From Candidatus Azobacteroides sp. (lineage in GTDB: Bacteria; Bacteroidota; Bacteroidia; Bacteroidales; WRGA01), in assembly GCA_009787405.1 (NCBI GenBank), contig WRGA01000124.1:9706-73705 (forward strand): 64,000 nt of DNA, given 5' to 3'. The notes beneath the pieces were generated by a model that saw nothing but the letters and a program-made list of their open reading frames with translations, was not told where the DNA came from and searched no databases. The position numbers and the translations under genes were made by a program. Below, piece by piece: positions 10,285-29,719 of the stretch; within the stretch, counting starts at the first letter, position 1, and every line of letters starts with the position of its first letter.

Positions 10285-13200
10285 TTAAACAACGATGTTG
10301 ACGATTTTTTTAGGAACGATAATCACTTTTTTGGGTGTTTTTCCTTCCAGCCATTTTTGAGACTGTTCGTGTTCCAGAACCGCTTTCTCTATTTCTTCGT
10401 TGGCGGCTTCCGCGGGAAAATCGAGGTTGAATCGCGATTTTCCGTTAAACGAAATGGAATAGGTGAATGAATTTTCTTTCAAATATTCCTCGTCCCAAAC
10501 CGGCCATTTTTCATCACAAATCGTATTGTTGTTCCCGATCGAATGCCAAAGTTCTTCGGCAATATGAGGAGCAAACGGCGCAATCAAAATCAACAGGTTA
10601 CCCAGTATTTCCTTTTTATTACACTTCAACGCCGTCAATTCGTTTACACAAATCATAAAAGCGCTTACGGAGGTATTGAACGAGAAATGCTCGATATCCG
10701 AAGTCACTTTCCTGATCAGTTTATGCAACGATTTCAATTCTTCTTTGGTCGGAGCTTCATCGGATACCGACAATTGATTTTCCGTATAAAACAAGTTCCA
10801 TAATTTGCGCAAAAAACGATGCACGCCGTCGATACCGTTGGTGTCCCACGGTTTGGAAATTTCCAGCGGGCCGAGAAACATTTCGTACATCCGCAACGTG
10901 TCGGCGCCGTATTTTTTCACCACATCGTCGGGATTGACCACGTTAAACATCGATTTCGACATTTTTTCGATGGCGTAACCGCAGATATATTTTCCGTTTT
11001 CGAGAATGAATTCGGCATTTTTGTATTCGGGATTCCAAGCACGGAATTTTTCGATGTCGAGCACATCATTCTCCACGATGTTTACATCCACGTGAATAGG
11101 CGTAACATCGTATTGAGATTTCAAGTTATACGACACGAACAGGTTGTCTCCCTGTACCCGGTACACGAAATTGGAACGTCCCTGAATCATCCCTTGATTG
11201 ATCAATTTCTTGAATGGTTCGTCTTCACAAACAACACCCAAGTCGAACAAGAATTTATTCCAAAAACGGCTGTAAATCAAATGCCCCGTCGCATGTTCGG
11301 TACCGCCGATGTATAAATCGACATTCCTCCAATATTCATTTGCCTCCTTCCCTACCAACGCATTCTCGTTATGCGGATCCATATAACGCAAATAATAGGC
11401 GGAAGAACCGGCAAAACCGGGCATGGTGTTCAATTCCAAAGGATAACCGTTATACGTCCAATCTTTGGCTCGTCCCAACGGCGGTTCGCCTGTTTCGGTA
11501 GGCAGGAACTTATCAATTTCGGGCAATTTTATCGGCAAATCTTTTTCGTCTACCGTATAGGGCATGCCGTCTTTGTAATAAATCGGAAACGGTTCGCCCC
11601 AATAGCGTTGACGACTGAATATCGCATCGCGGAGACGATAATTTACCTTACGCTTTCCGAGCCGGCGTTCTTCGACTTCTTTGACTGCCGAACGGATCGC
11701 CTCTTTCACTGTCAATCCGTTCAAAAAACCGGAATTAATCATGATCCCGTCTTTGGCGTCAAAGCTTTCTTCCGATACATCGCATCCTTCGATCAATGGA
11801 ACGATCGGTAAATTAAAATGCTTCGCAAATGCGTAGTCTCTGCTGTCGTGAGCAGGAACTGCCATAATGGCACCCGTTCCGTAACCGGCTAACACATAGT
11901 CGGAAATCCAAACAGGAATTTTTTCGTTGTTGAACGGATTCACCGCATACGATCCCGAAAACACCCCCGTCACCTTTTTATCGGCGATACGTTCTCTTTC
12001 CGTTCTTTTCTTCGTAGCGTCCAAATATAATTTAACTTCTTCTTTTTGTTCCGGCGTAGTCAATTTTTCTGTCAATTCGCTTTCAGGAGCCAATACCATG
12101 AACGTCACCCCGAAAATAGTGTCGGCGCGTGTGGTGAACACCGTAAAAAAGTCATCTTCCGGTTCTTGACCGGCGGAGTCGACATTGCTTGGGGTGGAGA
12201 CGGTCTCATCGAATTGGACATCTTCCGACATCAATTCCGACATTTTTTCGAAAGGAGGAATGGAATCCAATCGCTGTTTTATTTTCCGGATCACAAAATC
12301 CAAATCGGAAAAAATCTCGTTTTCTTCAATCCGGAGCACTCTGAAATCATGATTCGACAAAACGACGGTCCGTTCTTTCATATACTGCATGTACTCGGTT
12401 GTATCGGACTCTTCCGAAACAATCTCCACGATCAGGCGTTTCCGGGGAAAAACGAAATCCGCCGTAAAAAAAGCGACCGGCGCTCTTCTTTTAGCGTCAT
12501 GCCCGATCTGATGTATCAAAAAAGCATCCCAAAGAATATCGTGCGCTTGAGAGGTTTTAACAGCCGGTCGTGCGGCTTTAACCGGTTTAAATTGTATTTC
12601 CACACCTTCCGACCGACCGATCCAATGCCGCTGCGTATCTTTTAACGACTCCGTCCAGTCGATCTGTTCCAATCCGTCCAATAAACGTTGAGCATACGCC
12701 GAAACGCGCAAACACCATTGTTTCATGATTTTCTGCTCGACCGGATATCCTCCGCGAATAGACAATCCTTCGCTGACTTCATCATTTGCCAAAACCGTAC
12801 CCAACTTGGGACACCAATTCACGGGGGTATCTCCCAGATAAGCAATCCGGTAATTCAGCAAAATCTGTTGTTTTTCTTTTTCGCTTTTTTCATTCCATTC
12901 TTTCGCCGTAAACGAAAGTTCCTCTCCACAAGCTGCATTTAAATTACCGGTTCCGTAAATTTCGAAATGTTTGATCAGTTTTTCGACCGGTTCCGCTTTT
13001 TGCCGGTTATTGTCGTAGAAATGATGAAACATTTGAATAAACGCCCATTGCGTCCATTTGTAATATCCGGGATCACAGGTTCGGATTTCCCGCCTCCGGT
13101 CGTAACTGAACCCGATCTGATCTAACTGCTCACGGTAACGGGCAATGTTATTTTGTGTGGTGACGGCGGGATGTTGCCCCGTCTGAATCGCATATTGTTC

Positions 13201-13455
13201 GGCGGGAAGCCCGTATGCGTCGTATCCCATCGGATGCAACACATCAAAGCCTTTCAATCGTTTGTAACGGGAATAAATATCCGAGGCAATGTACCCCAAC
13301 GGATGCCCGACATGCAATCCCGCCCCCGATGGATACGGAAACATATCGAGTACATAATATTTCGGTTTGTTATTGTTTTCGACAACTTTATAGGTTTCAT
13401 TCTTAGCCCAAAACTCCTGCCACTTTTTTTCGATGTCCCTAAAATTATATTCCAT
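10285..13455 (-). CDS. leuS: Leucine--tRNA ligase with ~140 aa DUF559/Vsr-like insertion
   Basis: [14 protein letters not shown] (HIGH), [24 protein letters not shown]; 1056 aa, longer than usual. Confidence 0.97.
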
Positions 13456-21720: not shown

Positions 21721-22338
21721 ATGTGGATAGAGCAACCTCCGTTTTTGTATAGAGCTCTTTTTCCCGGTGCCGTCTGGAGAATTTCTTCCCGGGATGAGAA
21801 GCAGGTTTTCCTGACTTTTGACGACGGCCCGATTCCTGAAATAACACCGTGGGTGTTGGATGTATTGGATCAATATGAAGTTAAAGCCTCATTTTTTTGT
21901 GTCGGGGAAAATGTATCAAAATATCCCGATATTTTCCGGAATATCGTGAATCGCAACCATTCGGTCGGAAACCATACGTTCAATCATTTGCAGGGATGGA
22001 AAACATGGACGAAAACATACGTTCAAAATGTCAATAAAGCGGATCAACTCATCGGATCCGCTTTGTTTCGCCCCCCGCACGGGCATATCCGTTTTTTGCA
22101 GTCGGCCGTGCTGATGCACAAATATAATTTTATTATGTGGGATGTCGTGACACGCGATTACAGCAGATTTCTCTCCGGAGAACAGGTTTTGAACAATGTG
22201 AAAAAATACACCCGCAATGGTTCCATCATTGTTTTTCATGATTCTCTGAAAGCTCAAAAGAATTTACGGTATGCGTTGCCTCTTGCCATCGAGCATTTGC
22301 TGAAAGAAGGATATGTGTTTAAAAAGTTAATGACTTGA
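21721..22338 (+). CDS. Polysaccharide deacetylase (CE4/NodB)
   Basis: LTFDDGP, GNHTFNH, FRPPHG, GSIIVFHD. Confidence 0.93.
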   Translation: MWIEQPPFLYRALFPGAVWRISSRDEKQVFLTFDDGPIPEITPWVLDVLDQYEVKASFFCVGENVSKYPDIFRNIVNRNHSVGNHTFNHLQGWKTWTKTYVQNVNKADQLIGSALFRPPHGHIRFLQSAVLMHKYNFIMWDVVTRDYSRFLSGEQVLNNVKKYTRNGSIIVFHDSLKAQKNLRYALPLAIEHLLKEGYVFKKLMT

Positions 22339-23519: not shown

Positions 23520-23945
23520 TTACATGGGGTTGACGGAATAGGGCATCGGGTCTTTGACCGAGATGATGCTGTCGACGATATACCGGCTGTATCCGCGCCA
23601 AGGAATGGCTTTCCGGTATTCTTTGTAATGCAGCTGCAGATCTTTTCCGCTCAATAGTTCCAGACGTTCGGCCAATTTTTTATCTTCCACCGAAAACGGA
23701 AAATCATTGGATTGAATGCCTTGTCCCGTAATTCCCGGACGAATGCCCACCTGAATCAGCCGGCCTTCATACGTTTTGAAAACATATCCTTTGTAAACCA
23801 AGTTATTCAGTTGTCCGTTTTTCACCCCGTCTCCGAATACAAAATAATACTGGAAGTAGAAAAATCCGCCTCCTCCCACGATCAAAATAAGGAGAAGAAT
23901 GAACAGGATTTTTCTTCGTTTAGGTTTATGTTCAGGAGTATCCAT
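23520..23945 (-). CDS. Conserved membrane-anchored hypothetical protein
   Basis: Single TM, then KGYVFKTYEG and LHYKEY...PWRG motifs typical of a Bacteroidota family. Confidence 0.7.
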   Translation of the reverse strand: MDTPEHKPKRRKILFILLLILIVGGGGFFYFQYYFVFGDGVKNGQLNNLVYKGYVFKTYEGRLIQVGIRPGITGQGIQSNDFPFSVEDKKLAERLELLSGKDLQLHYKEYRKAIPWRGYSRYIVDSIISVKDPMPYSVNPM

Positions 23946-24102
23946 ATTTTACTTGTTGTTATTGGTTACGCATTTGCGAGATACAAAATTCCGCATAAAT
24001 GTTAAAATCGCTGTGGTTTGTTCGACAAAAATAAGAATTTGTTTTATGCCGGACATCAAAATCGTCTTATATTTGCATTTAATTCGGAATAATGAAGATT
24101 AT

Positions 24103-26112
24103 ATGAAAAAATTAACAATTATAGGGTTGGTATTGTCGAGCTCATGGTGTATTTCGGCACAAATTCTTAAGCCCGTCAAATGGTCGTATGCCATAAAAGA
24201 TTCAAAAACACCTGAAACTGAGATTATCATTACCGCCAAAATCGATAAGGGCTGGCATTTATACGACATGAATCTGCCCGAAGGCGGCCCGATTTCCACG
24301 TCGTTCACCTTCGACGAAATAAAAGGAGCCAAACTGAAAGGGAAGGTAACCGCACAAAACGCTTCCTTAAAAAGTTTCGACCCAAACTTTGAAATGGATT
24401 TGCGCCGGTTCGAAAATACGGCTGTTTTTGTCCAAAAAATTGTCATTACCGACAAAAAAACGTTTTCGATAAAAGGAACGACCGAGTTTATGGCCTGCAA
24501 TGACAGTCAGTGTCTGCAACCGACAAAAGATGAATTCGGGTTCGATGCGGAAAGCATCGCCGGGATGAATGTCGAGGCATTATCCGATGTCAAAAAACAA
24601 TCTTTGCCCGATTCGGCGGTTTTATCTGTCGATTCGGCGAAAACAGCCGTCGGGACATCCATACCTGTACCTTTACCTTCTGACTCGGTCTGGTGGAAAC
24701 CGGTGATCGCGGAGTTGCAAAATTACGGCGAACACGATTTGGCCGATAAAGCATGGTACCTCATTTTCTTTTTGGGTTTTGCGGGCGGATTGCTGGCATT
24801 GCTCACACCGTGTGTCTGGCCGATTATTCCCATGACCGTCAGCTTTTTCCTGAAACGCAACGACAACCGGAAAAAAGCCGTCCGACAAAGTTTTATCTAC
24901 GGTATCTCCATCATTGTCATTTATTTGGCGTTGGGGTTGATCATCACGGCGATATTCGGCGCAAGCGCTTTAAATGATTTATCGACTAATGCCGTTTTCA
25001 ATTTGTTGTTTTTTGCCCTGCTGATTGTATTTGCCGTTTCGTTTTTCGGAGCGTTTGAGATCACGTTACCGTCGTCATGGACCAATAAAATGAATGATAA
25101 GGCCGATAGTTCAATGGGTTTGTTGAGCATTTTTTTCATGGCATTTACGCTTGTCTTGGTGTCGTTTTCGTGTACAGGCCCCATCATCGGCACATTACTG
25201 GTGCAGGCGGCATCCATGGGAGCAACCCTCGGGCCGGCAATCGGGATGTTTGGCTTTGCATTGGCTTTGGCCATTCCGTTCACGCTGTTTGCAATCTTCC
25301 CGTCGTGGCTGAAAGAATTGCCCAAATCGGGAGGTTGGTTGAATTCGGTGAAAGTCGTTCTCGGATTTTTGGAACTGGCTCTTGCCCTGAAATTTCTCTC
25401 GGTCGCCGATTTGGCTTATCATTGGAATATCCTCGACCGGGAAGTGTTTTTGTCTTTATGGATTGCTGTTTTTGCTTTGCTCGGATTTTATCTGCTGGGG
25501 AAAATCAAATTCCCGCACGACGGTGAAGTCAAACACGTTTCCATTCCGCGTGTTTTTTTGGCATGGATCACTTTTGCATTTACGATCTATCTTATTCCCG
25601 GGTTATGGGGAGCGCCGCTGAAATCGATCAGCGCTTTTTCGCCTCCGTTGTTTACGCAAGATTTTAATTTATACACCGGTCAGGTGCATGCGAAATTCAA
25701 TGATTATGAAACGGGAATGGAATATGCGCGAAAAAACGGAAAGCCGGTGATCATCGATTTTTCGGGATATGGGTGTGTCAATTGCCGGAAAATGGAAGCC
25801 GCTGTTTGGACTGATTCGAAAGTGAAGGATTTGCTGGAAAAAGATTATGTGTTGATCACTCTTTTTGTCGACGACAAAGCGTTGTTACCGGCTCCGATAT
25901 CGGTTGACGACGACGGAAAGAACCGCACGCTCAAAACCGTCGGAGACAAATGGGGGTACCTGCAACGCCATAAATTCGGAGCCAATGCGCAACCTTTTTA
26001 TGTTTTGCTGAATAACGAAGGCAACCCGATCGCCAAATCGTACAGCTACGATGAAAATATCGAGAAATTTGTCACATATTTACAACACGGCTTGAAAGAA
26101 TACAAAAACTGA
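24103..26112 (+). CDS. dsbD: Protein-disulfide reductase DsbD family
   Basis: CNDSQC, LTPCVWP, SCTGP, SGGWL, GCVNC; start ATG 24103 after a TATATTTG box at 24068. Confidence 0.9.
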   Translation: MKKLTIIGLVLSSSWCISAQILKPVKWSYAIKDSKTPETEIIITAKIDKGWHLYDMNLPEGGPISTSFTFDEIKGAKLKGKVTAQNASLKSFDPNFEMDLRRFENTAVFVQKIVITDKKTFSIKGTTEFMACNDSQCLQPTKDEFGFDAESIAGMNVEALSDVKKQSLPDSAVLSVDSAKTAVGTSIPVPLPSDSVWWKPVIAELQNYGEHDLADKAWYLIFFLGFAGGLLALLTPCVWPIIPMTVSFFLKRNDNRKKAVRQSFIYGISIIVIYLALGLIITAIFGASALNDLSTNAVFNLLFFALLIVFAVSFFGAFEITLPSSWTNKMNDKADSSMGLLSIFFMAFTLVLVSFSCTGPIIGTLLVQAASMGATLGPAIGMFGFALALAIPFTLFAIFPSWLKELPKSGGWLNSVKVVLGFLELALALKFLSVADLAYHWNILDREVFLSLWIAVFALLGFYLLGKIKFPHDGEVKHVSIPRVFLAWITFAFTIYLIPGLWGAPLKSISAFSPPLFTQDFNLYTGQVHAKFNDYETGMEYARKNGKPVIIDFSGYGCVNCRKMEAAVWTDSKVKDLLEKDYVLITLFVDDKALLPAPISVDDDGKNRTLKTVGDKWGYLQRHKFGANAQPFYVLLNNEGNPIAKSYSYDENIEKFVTYLQHGLKEYKN

Positions 26113-26551
26113 TAAATACGTTGTTTCGGGATGATTAACAGACATTATATTGATTAAATGATAACTATACTGATTATCAATTTGTTTAATATCTAAAAAT
26201 TGCTTATTCTATATAAACTCTAATATCTGCAATAAGCCCGCATTTAATGCCGAAACCACTGTATTTTATTGATTTTCAATACTCTTCCGATGACTCTGAC
26301 ACCGCCTGCTGTCAAGCGTCAGCTCTATTATTTTCTCTTTAATTACTTGAGTATATGCATTATAGCGATATTCCCGTTGCAATGAGAGCATAATATTTCG
26401 GGGATATGTATCATTTGGTTTTTTTGAAAAAATAACACCTTTCAGTCAATTTAAGCACTACCTCGGAATCGATGCAAACTACAACCGGTTTTTAAAATAA
26501 TATTTTTTACGCCGATTCTTCTCCTTTTTAACAATTCTTAAACAAATTTAT

Positions 26552-26659
26552 TTTGATAAACCAAGGAGTTCTCACTACTTTTGCCTCGTAATTTTTTCAT
26601 AGTATTAGATTTAAGGTTAATAACTAAAGATTGGTTGTCGGGATGACAACCTTTTTTTT
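26552..26659 (+). ncRNA. Candidate sRNA paralogue 1 (promoter plus ~70 nt RNA with intrinsic terminator)
   Basis: TTTG(26552)-N20-TACTTTTG(26576); core TTTTCATAGTATTAGATTTAAGGTTAA; GGTTGTC-GGGAT-GACAACC-T8. Confidence 0.75.
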
Positions 26660-26755
26660 GCCCGTTTTTCATACAATCTGACTCCTATCCTTATTCTCTT
26701 CTTTTTCAGACTGTACCTTATTGATAAAACCTTTGTACAAAATAAGAGAATATGG

Positions 26756-26833
26756 ATGTCGTAAAACCGTTTTATATTTTAAACGCCAAGGCACAAAGAC
26801 GGAAAGACGCGAAGTTTAAATTCTTTGTGGCTT
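26756..26833. mobile_element. MITE-like repeat family, partial copy 2 (opposite orientation to copy 1)
   Basis: ATGTCGTAAAACCGTTTTATATTTTAAACGCCAAGGCACAAAGACGGAAAGACGCGAAGTTTAAATTCTTTG matches 47780-47860. Confidence 0.65.
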
Positions 26834-27116
26834 TCTATCGGACAACATGTCCTTTCGAATGAATAGTGACGGACAACATGTCCGCCACGGCGGGGAAAAT
26901 AGGAGTTGTCTATATCCGTTTAACGATGCATTTTCATCAAATACAGCATGAAAGTGCCGGCAAAAGAATAAACTATCTGCCAATATTTTTACATAAAAAA
27001 AGGAAAAATACGTCATAATCGCCCTATTTGAGGCAAAATCAATAAACTTCCCATTAATAGTCAAACAGTATTTAACTTAAAGTACTATATTCATTAACAA
27101 TTTTTAAGGCAATTTT

Positions 27117-27222
27117 TTTGGAAATACATTCAAATCATGCATACATTTGCACTGTGTTTTTCATGGTATTAGATTTAAGGTTAACAAAAGAAGATTGGTT
27201 GTCGGGATGACAACCTTTTTTT
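27117..27222 (+). ncRNA. Candidate sRNA paralogue 2
   Basis: TTTG(27117)-N21-TACATTTG(27142); same core and identical terminator. Confidence 0.75.
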
Positions 27223-27275
27223 ATTTATACCGGTTCCGTCATGCTTACTTATTAACAATTATTAGAGTAAAAAAT

Positions 27276-27486
27276 TTTGAAATTCAGACCATCCGGACTT
27301 ACCTTTACAGCGTGATTTTTCATGGTATTAGATTTAAGGAATTATCACAAAATAAATAGAACACCTAAAACAGCTAATTACCTGTAAATGTGTAATTTAA
27401 TTTATATAAGTGTTACATTTATTTATTGACAATTCTTAAGGTTAACAAAAAGAAAGATTGGTTGTCGGGATGACAACCTTTTTTTT
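27276..27486 (+). ncRNA. Candidate sRNA paralogue 3, interrupted by a 97 bp insertion
   Basis: TTTG(27276)-N20-TACCTTTA(27300); core is split at TTAAG; identical terminator at 27460-27486. Confidence 0.65.
27339..27435. mobile_element. 97 bp MITE with terminal inverted repeats and 5 bp target duplication
   Basis: Left end GAATTATCACAAAATAAAT vs revcomp of right end GAATTGTCAATAAATAAAT; TTAAG at 27334-27338 and 27436-27440. Confidence 0.75.
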
Positions 27487-27646
27487 GCCCCTACCCTACT
27501 CGATCCGGTTAATTCAACCGTTAATATTTATAGAGAAATCACAAATTATCCTATCTTTGTATTTTAATTTCAGGCGGATAAATTACCAAACCACATTCAC
27601 AAAATCATTAACCCGGGATCAACAAACACGAACATCATATTGTATT

Positions 27647-29719
27647 ATGGCTAAAATAATGATAAATGATCAATTGATCAACCCCCAAAGCATAGTGGTG
27701 GTCGGAGCTTCAAATGATATTCACAAACCGGGCGGAAAAATCGTGAAAAATCTGCTCGACGGAAAATACGAAGGCCGGTTATATGCCGTCAATTATAAAG
27801 AAACCGAAATCCAAGGCATCCGATCCTACCCGAACATCCATGATATTCCCGACACAGATCTGGCAATTTTAGCTATTCCGGCAGCATCCTGCCCGGAAGT
27901 GACCGCCGTTTTGGTCAACCGGAAAAACGTCAAAGCCCTTATCATCATATCTGCCGGATTCGGGGAAGAAACTCCCGAAGGCGCCAAACTGGAAGAACAA
28001 ATCCTGAATACCGTCAACCATGCCGGCGCGGCGTTAATCGGCCCCAATTGCATCGGATTGATTACGCCATACCATCACAGTGTATTTTCCCGTCCGATTC
28101 CCGATTTGCACCCTCAAGGCGTGGATTTGATTTCCAGTTCGGGGGGGACGGCTCTTTTCATCATGGAATCGGCCATGAACAAAGGACTTCGCTTCGCATC
28201 GGTATGGTCGGTCGGTAACGCGAAACAAATCGGTGTGGAAGAAGTGCTGGAATATATGGATATTCATTTCGACATCGAAAAGGATTCCAAACTGAAAATG
28301 CTTTACATCGAAAGCATCAAAAATCCCGACAAACTTTTAAAACACGCCTCTTCTCTCATCAAAAAAGGATGTAAAATAGCCGGAATCAAAGCCGGATCAA
28401 CCACATCGGGACAACGAGCGGCGACATCGCATACAGGAGCAATCGCCAATTCCGACTCGGCAGTGGAAGCTTTATTCAGAAAAGCCGGAATCGTTCGTTG
28501 TTACAGTCGCGAAGAATTAACCACGATCGCTTGTGTTTTCACATTGAAAAAATTGACGGGAAAAAACATCGGAATCGTCACCCATGCCGGAGGACCTGCG
28601 GTATTGCTCGCCGACGCCTTGTCGAAAGGAGGATTGAATGTTCCCTTTCTCTCCGGCCTGGTCGCCGACGAACTGAAAAGCAAACTTTTTCCCGGAGCAG
28701 CCGTCGGCAATCCCATCGATATTATCGGAACAGGCACCCCGGAGCATTTGGGAATTGCCATCGATTATTGCGAAAAACGATTCGATAACATTGATGAAAT
28801 CATCGTTATTTTCGGAACACCGGGATTGGTAAAAGTATATGAGGCTTACCGTGTGTTAGACGAAAAAATGAATACTTCGACCAAGCCGATCTTTCCGGTT
28901 CTGCCCTCTGTCACCACAGCAGAAGGAGAAGTAAAAGATTTCATTAAAAAGGGGCATGTCAATTTTTCCGATGAAGTACTTTTGGGAACGGCCATAACGA
29001 GAATTATGCAAACCGCCGGGCCTACGGTCGGAGAAATCGAACTGGACGGTGTGAATATTCCCGAAATCAGACGCATCATCGACTCCATCAATCAACCGGG
29101 TTATATTCCTCCGGCACTCACTCAACAATTGTTAAAATCGGCGGGCATCCCGCTTGTCAAAGAATTTGTCTCTTCCGACAAAAAAGAAATCATTGATTTC
29201 TCCAAAGAAATCGGATTTCCGGTAGTGATCAAAGCCGTAGGCCCCGTTCACAAATCGGATGTCGGGGGCGTTGTTTTGGACATCAAATCGAGCCGCCATT
29301 TAGAATTTGAGTTCGAACGAATAATGAATATTCCCGAAGCGACGGCCGTACTGATCCAACCGATGTTATCGGGAAGAGAACTTTTCATCGGGGCAAAATA
29401 TGAAAATAAATTCGGTCATATCGTACTTTGCGGATTAGGCGGAATTTTCGTCGAAGTGCTGAAAGACATTGCCTACGGATTGGCGCCGTTGAGCTATTCT
29501 GAAGCTTTTTCGATGATCCGGTCGTTGAAATCATACAAAATCATCAAAGGAACCCGCGGACAAAAAGGAATCGACGAAAACGAGTTTGCCGAAATCATTG
29601 TCCGACTATCGACATTGCTGCGTTTCGCAACCGAAATCAAAGAAATCGACATCAATCCGCTTTTGGCAACTCCGACCGGGATTATTGCCGTAGACGCACG
29701 AATAAGAATAGAAGAATAA
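27647..29719 (+). CDS. Acetate/acyl-CoA ligase (ADP-forming), fused alpha-beta
   Basis: SIVVVGAS, IGPNCIG, SHTGA phospho-His, HKSDVGGV, EIDINPL; start ATG 27647. Confidence 0.9.
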   Translation: MAKIMINDQLINPQSIVVVGASNDIHKPGGKIVKNLLDGKYEGRLYAVNYKETEIQGIRSYPNIHDIPDTDLAILAIPAASCPEVTAVLVNRKNVKALIIISAGFGEETPEGAKLEEQILNTVNHAGAALIGPNCIGLITPYHHSVFSRPIPDLHPQGVDLISSSGGTALFIMESAMNKGLRFASVWSVGNAKQIGVEEVLEYMDIHFDIEKDSKLKMLYIESIKNPDKLLKHASSLIKKGCKIAGIKAGSTTSGQRAATSHTGAIANSDSAVEALFRKAGIVRCYSREELTTIACVFTLKKLTGKNIGIVTHAGGPAVLLADALSKGGLNVPFLSGLVADELKSKLFPGAAVGNPIDIIGTGTPEHLGIAIDYCEKRFDNIDEIIVIFGTPGLVKVYEAYRVLDEKMNTSTKPIFPVLPSVTTAEGEVKDFIKKGHVNFSDEVLLGTAITRIMQTAGPTVGEIELDGVNIPEIRRIIDSINQPGYIPPALTQQLLKSAGIPLVKEFVSSDKKEIIDFSKEIGFPVVIKAVGPVHKSDVGGVVLDIKSSRHLEFEFERIMNIPEATAVLIQPMLSGRELFIGAKYENKFGHIVLCGLGGIFVEVLKDIAYGLAPLSYSEAFSMIRSLKSYKIIKGTRGQKGIDENEFAEIIVRLSTLLRFATEIKEIDINPLLATPTGIIAVDARIRIEE

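Follow-up and report, generated by a model that had tools for sequence, protein, structure and literature searches.

FopS-family small RNA genes in tandem in a termite-gut Bacteroidales genome, one copy of which is split by a miniature transposon-like insertion

Introduction

What are the three short, similar units that follow one another on the plus strand in the 1.5-kb gap that separates a DsbD-like gene from an acetyl-CoA synthetase-like gene in an uncultured termite-gut Bacteroidales, how would they be controlled, and why does the third differ from the other two? The window in which they lie is the whole stretch of DNA analysed here, 64,000 nucleotides (64 kb) of contig WRGA01000124.1 in the Candidatus Azobacteroides sp. 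assembly GCA_009787405.1. A first-pass annotation, made from the letters alone, had described the units as three paralogous genes of about 70 nucleotides (nt) for small RNAs (sRNAs), forming a co-regulated multicopy family with a shared seed and reminiscent of the paralogous families of Bacteroides, and was unable to name that family. The reading at which we arrive, with a probability of about 0.88 for the explanation as a whole, is that of a tandem array of FopS-family sRNA genes, each with its own promoter and terminator, of which the third was hit by a miniature inverted-repeat transposable element (MITE) and which are most likely co-regulated through an upstream TTAAC box. The family is already described and curated in Rfam, and the copies in the window are further members of it.

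FopS was first described in Bacteroides thetaiotaomicron, where it has 14 copies (PMC11697453). According to that paper, its 5' seed R1' is partly common with that of GibS and pairs with susC mRNAs; FopS-10 blocks translation in vitro, a block relieved by RbpB, an RRM-1 (RNA recognition motif) protein which binds FopS; and an 'unknown transcriptional regulator' is invoked by the authors for bile or membrane stress. The FopS RNAs of B. thetaiotaomicron are about 65-70 nt long and are induced by bile salts.

Identification of the array as FopS genes

An Rfam 15 scan of positions 25500-28500 gave the family the name that the first-pass annotation had lacked. RF04319 (BTncRNA_FopS, 'Bacteroidetes FopS, family of paralogous sRNAs'; 71-position model, gathering score 56 bits) matches copy 2 with 82.5 bits and copy 1 with 69.0 bits, both over the full length of the model, and these two are the only Rfam matches above the gathering score in the 64-kb window. 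The 5' motif TTTTCAT(A/G)GTATTAGATTTAAGG occurs exactly three times in the window (26594, 27158, 27317), as does, in identical form, the 3' motif GATTGGTTGTCGGGATGACAACC (26629, 27193, 27456); neither was found in 100 dinucleotide-preserving shuffles. A repeat finder likewise lists the RNA bodies (families D1 and D3) and the upstream TTAACAATT stretch (D2) as three-copy families.

The first 35 nt of copy 2 agree at 34 of 35 positions with the R1' consensus printed in the Methods of PMC11697453. Predicted folds of copies 1 and 2 contain only the terminator hairpin and weak 5' pairing, the first 20 nt or so being mostly weakly paired or unpaired; the conserved single-stranded 5' seed (R1') is present in the array, contiguous in copy 3 for nt 1-28 only. 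Five FopS matches, four of them over the cut-off, occur in the assembly, which is 91% complete and has 2.79 Mb in 125 contigs, and the family is therefore multicopy in this genome; the other three genomes of the genus carry 5, 5 and 1 copies.

The likeness to FopS of B. thetaiotaomicron thus extends from the full-length match to the covariance model and the agreement in R1' to the terminator hairpin with its U-tract, the canonical -33/-7 promoter and the multicopy state, with tandem arrays in other genomes too and with RRM proteins and SusC-like genes encoded in the genome. The differences lie in the host, a Bacteroidales of the termite gut that is uncultured and has an assembly of 2.8 Mb, in the copy number (5 here against 14 in B. 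thetaiotaomicron, with only 9 SusC-like genes here) and in the copy split by a MITE. GibS (RF04182) has the 5' R1 seed in common with the array, and its model aligns to the first 40 nt or so of copies 1 and 2; however, it scores 41.2 and 33.1 bits where 115 are required and the R2 region is missing, so the units are not GibS genes. The GibS promoter is moreover described in PMC11697453 as a different motif, PM2. SrcF of Segatella copri was considered as a relative and rejected, being an unrelated sRNA of 272 nt.

Promoters and terminators

Each copy carries a predicted canonical promoter and a predicted intrinsic terminator of its own (Table 1). The three -7 boxes end 4 nt ahead of the G with which the respective copy begins, and a terminator scan finds the same 8-pair stem followed by a T-run in all three; a scan for sigma-70 promoters was uninformative for Bacteroidota. 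The Bacteroidota -33/-7 geometry and the identity of the terminators are as the first-pass annotation had given them, and the upstream motif that it had seen was recovered as TTAACAATT at the start of each upstream box, 14-15 nt ahead of the -33 TTTG. Its remark that the RNA body is conserved and the promoter spacers have diverged also holds, since pairwise identity is 88-95% for the RNA bodies (63/72, 66/73 and 69/73), 67-68% over the 66 nt upstream and 55-60% in the spacers between the -33 and -7 boxes. The length of about 70 nt, claimed for all three genes, applies to copies 1 and 2 and fails for the third, in which 102 extra nt split the gene. A dispersed repeat unlinked to promoters elsewhere, which the annotation had named as the observation that would speak against it, is not what the family looks like: of 124 FopS loci from other genomes, 97 have their -7 box at one and the same offset.

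The split third copy

In copy 3 the conserved body runs through GATTTAAGG, which ends at 27339 and whose last 6 nt, TTAAGG (27334-27339), form the first copy of a target duplication. The 102 extra nt are composed of a 96-nt element and the second TTAAGG, after which the body resumes with TTAAC at 27442. The ends of the insert are inverted repeats starting from the junctions, with 16 matches over the 20-nt ends, a value equalled by one in 2000 shuffles of the element.

The 21-mer at the right end of the insert was found without mismatch in 12 metagenome contigs, all of which are conserved upstream of it and begin to diverge right after ...GACAATTC, the place at which TTAAGG starts in the window. 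In the four contigs that were translated, a transposase-like frame (ISAzo13-like) stops just ahead of the 21-mer, and two of these frames, when scanned, hit Pfam family PF07592 (DDE_Tnp_ISAZ013) over its C-terminal third with E-values of 1e-39 and 4e-40. Because of the inverted repeats and of the position of the right-end 21-mer beside PF07592 frames, the insert is best read, from its sequence, as a non-autonomous miniature element that derives from an insertion sequence (IS) of the ISAzo13 family. With MITEs of this family it has in common inverted repeats that start at the junctions, a direct target duplication and an end common to the autonomous IS, the last for the right end only, which is as found downstream of ISAzo13-like frames. 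In 300 other genomes of the order only short weak matches to the insert were detected, the best being 27 nt at E = 6e-5.

The insert is not an assembly artefact, because a 274-nt contig of one metagenome run (X1) spans positions 27209-27482 with 0 differences and with a depth (about 163) equal to that of its neighbours, and because no joint skipping the insert was present among the contigs on the locus, runs X2 and X3 having no coverage of copy 3. The sequence of events that we propose is that the 96-nt ISAzo13-family derivative inserted into the seed of copy 3 at TTAAGG. The copy would thereby have kept its promoter, seed nt 1-28 and its terminator, and its predicted product would be an RNA of about 175 nt with seed nt 19-28 locked in the hairpin of the element. 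Copy 3 is, by this model, most likely impaired or decaying.

The upstream TTAAC box and its range in the family

The promoters of all 16 FopS copies of the genus, i.e. those of the window genome and of the three other genomes (four species in all), were compared after alignment on the seed. In 12 of them TTAAC starts 63-67 nt ahead of the seed, that is about 60 nt ahead of the start site, and in eight of these 12 another TTAAC lies 20-23 nt upstream of the first, at a distance of about two helical turns. Of the remaining four promoters, three belong to a copy on contig C76 and its orthologues, which carry instead the palindrome TATGTTTTATAACATA over the -33 region.

Outside FopS the box is rare. 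The genome contains 142 strict promoter-like sites (TTTG-N19-21-TAnnTTTG), six of which have TTAAC 22-26 nt before the TTTG, and three of these six are FopS promoters; copy 3 is left out of this count because its -7 box ends in A. The composite TTAACAAT-N12-18-TTTG-N19-21-TAnnTTT(G/A) is found four times in 2.79 Mb, three of these being the genes of the window. Non-FopS promoter-like sites with TTAAC at the same offset include one on C116 near 29681 (+) and one on C109 at 21946-22000 (-); the transcript predicted for the C116 site starts shortly before a TTGTTTTTCATC stretch which resembles the start of the FopS seed.

Since it keeps a fixed position throughout the genus and is rare at other promoter-like sites, the TTAAC box is, as far as sequence comparison can tell, kept by selection and nearly specific to FopS. 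That 12 of the 16 promoters have it in a constant place further suggests that the TTAAC(AATT) box is probably a regulatory site of some factor. The box about 60 nt upstream, with the second one two helical turns higher at copy 2, would then most likely bind a transcription factor by which promoters of this class are co-regulated.

Looking beyond the genus, the exact FopS seed pattern was found in at least 126 stretches of a collection of species-representative genomes. Among the matches listed, the labels include Paludibacter, Dysgonomonas, Dysgonamonadaceae, Muribaculaceae, Prevotellaceae (including Segatella copri and Leyella stercorea), Phocaeicola, Mediterranea, Bacteroides, Alloprevotella and metagenome-assembled genomes labelled Porphyromonadaceae. 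In an even sampling of the order, FopS exceeds the Rfam cut-off in 26 of 151 genomes and reaches E <= 0.001 in 33 of 151. Tandem FopS arrays, with from two to at least four copies in 0.2-2 kb, were seen in Dysgonomonas sp. 521 and in other unrelated Bacteroidales, and clustering is therefore a trait of the family and nothing special to the window.

When 124 distinct upstream regions were combined into a profile without gaps, conservation was visible in the -7 and -33 boxes, in a T-tract and in one more patch, at -78 to -64. For counts, 70 loci of other species with 300 nt on both sides were used. TTAA-N6-TTA(A/T) starting between -100 and -50 is present in 27 of these 70 loci, against 0, 0, 4, 0 and 0 in five control windows. 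GTTAA has its peak in the -80 to -61 bin (36 occurrences), followed by 12 and 10 in the next two bins upstream and by 0-3 in bins remote from both promoter and RNA body.

Cur-type sites and possible promoter classes

The proposed consensus for Cur (BT4338), the Crp-like master regulator of carbohydrate utilisation, is wwwTATGTTnTAnAACATAwww (PMC3878776); it is repeated in PMC6989115, in the text of which deletion of such a site upstream of fusA2 is reported to have abolished Cur binding. The ATGTTnTAnAACAT sequence of many FopS promoters corresponds to this consensus. When the 14 specified positions of TATGTTnTAnAACATA were scored over -120 to -1 with a threshold of at least 12, 33 of the 70 FopS promoters reached it, in comparison with 0/70 in each of two control windows. 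They form two clusters, one centred about 60 nt and the other about 29 nt upstream of the start.

Of 12 FopS promoters in a B. thetaiotaomicron-labelled genome, 7 match at least 12 of the 14 positions. Within the genus studied here the threshold is reached by the C76-type copies only (14, 14 and 13 of 14): the TATGTTTTATAACATA of the C76 copy (C76:6011-6116, minus strand) is the only perfect Cur match in the assembly and is located between the -7 box and the -33 position, and the orthologues belong to two sister species. Unlike these, the window copies carry the TTAAC box and no Cur-type box, since they match only 9, 9 and 8 of 14 positions. A Cur regulon beyond the C76 FopS copy was not clear in this genome, in which three sites score at least 13/14 where 1.9 are expected from base composition. 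The genome encodes three Crp-type helix-turn-helix proteins.

Published binding data bear on the same point. The printed peak sequences in Supplementary Table S3A of PMC6989115 come from Cur chromatin immunoprecipitation sequencing in B. thetaiotaomicron after 10 min of carbon limitation. At least seven of these peaks (47, 48, 63, 64, 109, 229 and 230) contain the FopS seed, with -log10 p of 71-383 and enrichment of 1.5-2.2 fold, and peak 47 (704155-704786) covers BTnc025, which is FopS-01 (704399-704508). Several of the listed peak sequences with the FopS seed also hold the Cur-box palindrome. In published measurements FopS was about 3-fold more abundant on glucose than on high-mannose N-glycan (PMC11697453), which would point to Cur as a repressor and not an activator. 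No published link between FopS and Cur was found in the text searched, with figures and some supplements outside that search, and the FopS paper mentions 'Cur' once, in another context; the only other works found to contain both names were its own preprint and one more preprint, in which the two are mentioned separately. Related statements in other papers are that some sRNAs induced by carbon limitation lie near BT4338 sites (PMC10294740) and that MasB is counted among the members of the Cur regulon (PMC10994844).

A tentative proposal, which we consider rather less likely than not, is that FopS genes fall into at least two promoter classes which express the same seed in response to different signals, namely a Cur-box class and a class, including the three genes of the window, with (G)TTAAC boxes phased around -60 and -82 and served by a putative other factor.

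Proposed mechanism, partners and targets

Each FopS gene would be transcribed from its own -33/-7 promoter, starting at the G 4 nt past the -7 box and stopping at the identical intrinsic terminator. By analogy with FopS of B. thetaiotaomicron, the mostly unpaired 5' end may act as the R1' seed and repress susC-type sugar importers, and a small RRM-1 protein similar to RbpB may bind the 5' part of the sRNA and relieve the repression.

Genes for both kinds of partner are present. Two open frames of 111 and 112 amino acids with a single RRM_1 domain were found at C123:24522-24734 (82.9 bits) and C94:23200-23409 (79.1 bits), the correspondence with the published partner being at the level of this domain. 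Nine SusC/RagA genes score over the TIGR04056 cut-off, among 28 matches in the genome; SusC-like genes lie, for example, at C112:11565, C39:2805 and C89:1768. Duplexes were predicted between a 27-nt seed and the region from -40 to +30 of the start, taken as the first ATG of each frame. As a set, the nine SusC starts have a mean duplex energy of -14.2 kcal/mol (the best being -20.8, -17.8 and -16.9), compared with -10.2 kcal/mol for 1076 first-ATG starts of open reading frames of at least 300 amino acids (Mann-Whitney p = 9e-4) and with -10.1 kcal/mol for nine starts of other TonB-dependent receptors (p = 0.014). None of 300 shuffled seeds reached the SusC mean, and one SusC start region contains the exact 11-nt seed complement ATCTAATACCA.

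Layout of the locus

The coordinates of the array, of its control elements, of the neighbouring genes and of the FopS copies above the cut-off elsewhere in the assembly are collected in Table 1. The three-copy locus as a whole was present in none of 30 relative genomes, in which the matches were to single copies only. In one run labelled termite gut metagenome, which may be the source sample, 95% of the sampled words of the stretch are present.

Table 1. Features of the FopS array and related loci (window positions unless a contig is given).
Feature	Position	Strand	Remarks
FopS copy 1, intact	26588..26661	+	RF04319 69.0 bits, model 1-71; stem-loop 26633-26651, then T8
FopS copy 2, intact	27154..27225	+	RF04319 82.5 bits, model 1-71; terminator 27197-27215, then T7
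FopS copy 3, 5' part (seed nt 1-28)	27312..27339	+	Rfam partial match, 32.2 bits
FopS copy 3, 3' part	27442..27488	+	Rfam partial match, 37.4 bits over 27410-27488; terminator 27460-27478, then T8
MITE-like insertion, 96 nt	27340..27435	unassigned	Imperfect terminal inverted repeats; second TTAAGG follows at 27436-27441
Promoter, copy 1	26552..26583	+	-33 TTTG 26552-26555; 20-nt spacer; -7 TACTTTTG 26576-26583
Promoter, copy 2	27117..27149	+	-33 TTTG at 27117; 21-nt spacer; -7 TACATTTG
Promoter, copy 3	27276..27307	+	-33 TTTG at 27276; 20-nt spacer; -7 TACCTTTA
Upstream TTAAC box, copy 1	26528..26541	+	TTAACAATTCTTAA, near-palindromic TTAA-N6-TTAA
Upstream TTAAC box, copy 2	27094..27107	+	TTAACAATTTTTAA
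Distal TTAAC box, copy 2	27072..27076	+	22 nt upstream of proximal box
Upstream TTAAC box, copy 3	27252..27265	+	TTAACAATTATTAG
FopS copy outside the window	C76:6011-6080		81 bits
FopS copy outside the window	C99:24474-24546		69.4 bits
DsbD-like thiol:disulfide interchange gene	23899-26112		Left neighbour of array
CoA-binding/ATP-grasp protein, typical of ADP-forming acetyl-CoA synthetases	27647-29719		Right neighbour of array

The gap that holds the array is packed with short repeats which match hundreds of times in the assembly. Two short dispersed repeats, 26750-26840 and 26831-26896, adjoin each other between copies 1 and 2; together they have more than 150 blastn matches across the assembly contigs, and in a termite gut metagenome run their contig depths add up to about 25,000, whereas the flanks have about 165. 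Another repeat of about 90 nt (26136-26226) has about eight copies with 93-98% identity, on contigs C111, C90, C116, C82, C80, C117 and C115. Elsewhere in the window, the leucyl-tRNA synthetase frame at 10285-13455 (minus strand, 1056 amino acids) has a match to DUF559 (PF04480, Vsr-like endonuclease fold) at residues 302-396 (E = 1.2e-8), lying between the catalytic and editing domains as an unusual insertion.

Alternative explanations and contrary evidence

Several observations weigh against the explanation proposed or against one of its parts. Both halves of copy 3 score below the cut-off of 56 bits, and the -7 box of this copy ends in A, not G. A search of sequencing runs for the stretch returned three DNA runs, labelled termite gut metagenome, and no RNA run. 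By blastn the insert has no further copy in the assembly, so the several copies by which a MITE is recognised are missing, no ISAzo13 transposase was found in the 91%-complete assembly, and the left-end 22-mer has 0 exact matches in metagenome contigs; in these three respects the insert differs from ISAzo13-family MITEs. No wider TTAAC regulon was found in the genome, where one non-FopS composite site (on C109) and three loose ones have no common theme. The TTAAC boxes of the window lie at -66 to -64 and the TTAA-N6-TTAW of other families at -90 to -71, so that the two need not be equivalent. With regard to targets, the enrichment of SusC starts exists at the level of the set only, and when 14,706 in-frame ATG contexts of long open reading frames were scanned without filter no SusC start was among the best 45, the top of that scan being mostly internal ATGs; an AU-rich seed also pairs better with AT-rich leaders generally, and the start codons were of our own choosing.

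That the units are no trans-acting sRNAs at all, and represent a dispersed mobile or repetitive extragenic palindromic-like repeat, a cis leader of the acetyl-CoA synthetase-like gene or tiny coding genes, is highly improbable. The crowding of the gap with repeated elements could be taken in favour of such a view, as could a 15-codon ATG frame in copy 2 (27164-27211) with its TGA stop in the terminator loop, but every unit lies at a fixed distance from a promoter and has a strong terminator, members of the family occur in unrelated contexts in many genomes, and three terminators stand between the first promoter and the downstream gene. The 15-codon frame itself is probably non-coding, because copy 1 and about half of the family have ATA in place of its ATG; small open reading frames were also excluded by the FopS authors, according to PMC11697453. 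A more serious competitor, although we doubt it, concerns the upstream box, which may be an AT-rich UP-like element aiding the polymerase, or sequence inherited with the duplicated unit, and not a transcription-factor site. The box is AT-rich and is located just upstream of a T-rich tract ahead of the -33 box, the four composite sites in the genome offer no regulon that would back a dedicated factor, the FopS paralogues have a common ancestry, and the RNA body itself holds GGTTAACAA. Simple inheritance or base composition would however have to account for a box retained where flanking promoter sequence has fallen to 55-68% identity, for its fixed position across four species and the spacing of the second box, and for the lack of TTAAC at 136 of 142 other promoter-like sites.

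The interpretation of the TTAAC box as a putative regulatory site is the one we retain, and for copy 3 a comparable choice has to be made. It is conceivable, if rather unlikely, that copy 3 is a working longer sRNA of about 175 nt, similar to GibS, in which the inserted hairpin adds stability or a second interaction surface. Its promoter, first 28 seed nt and terminator are intact, and GibS provides the precedent of a longer functional RNA with the FopS 5' seed and extra sequence ahead of the terminator. The published target search, as described in PMC11697453, was restricted to seed positions 1-21, which are largely unpaired in the predicted fold of copy 3, and this fold, in which the element forms a long hairpin, is more stable than those of shuffles (-38 kcal/mol, z = -3.3). 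The same hairpin, however, also pairs with seed nt 19-28 and so sequesters this part of the extended R1'; the extra DNA has the hallmarks of transposition (inverted repeats, target duplication and an IS-like end) and is without counterpart in the other 10 copies of the genus examined or in the 300 genomes of the order; and the GibS model has no match to copy 3.

Significance

The find in the window is in itself an ordinary one, which an Rfam scan would annotate: an sRNA family already characterised in Bacteroides is present in a lineage from the termite gut. The range of FopS extends well beyond the Bacteroidaceae, the group named in the original paper (PMC11697453). The copy interrupted by the MITE amounts to a natural experiment on how much seed and spacing a FopS RNA tolerates. 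The comparison of promoters yields testable candidates for the transcriptional control of FopS, the Cur box for about half of the family members and, for the genes of the window, the different TTAAC box. If the division into two promoter classes is true, FopS genes of the Cur-box class would be a post-transcriptional arm of Cur-dependent sugar prioritisation, and the factor acting on the (G)TTAAC class may be the regulator that the FopS authors had invoked for bile or membrane stress.

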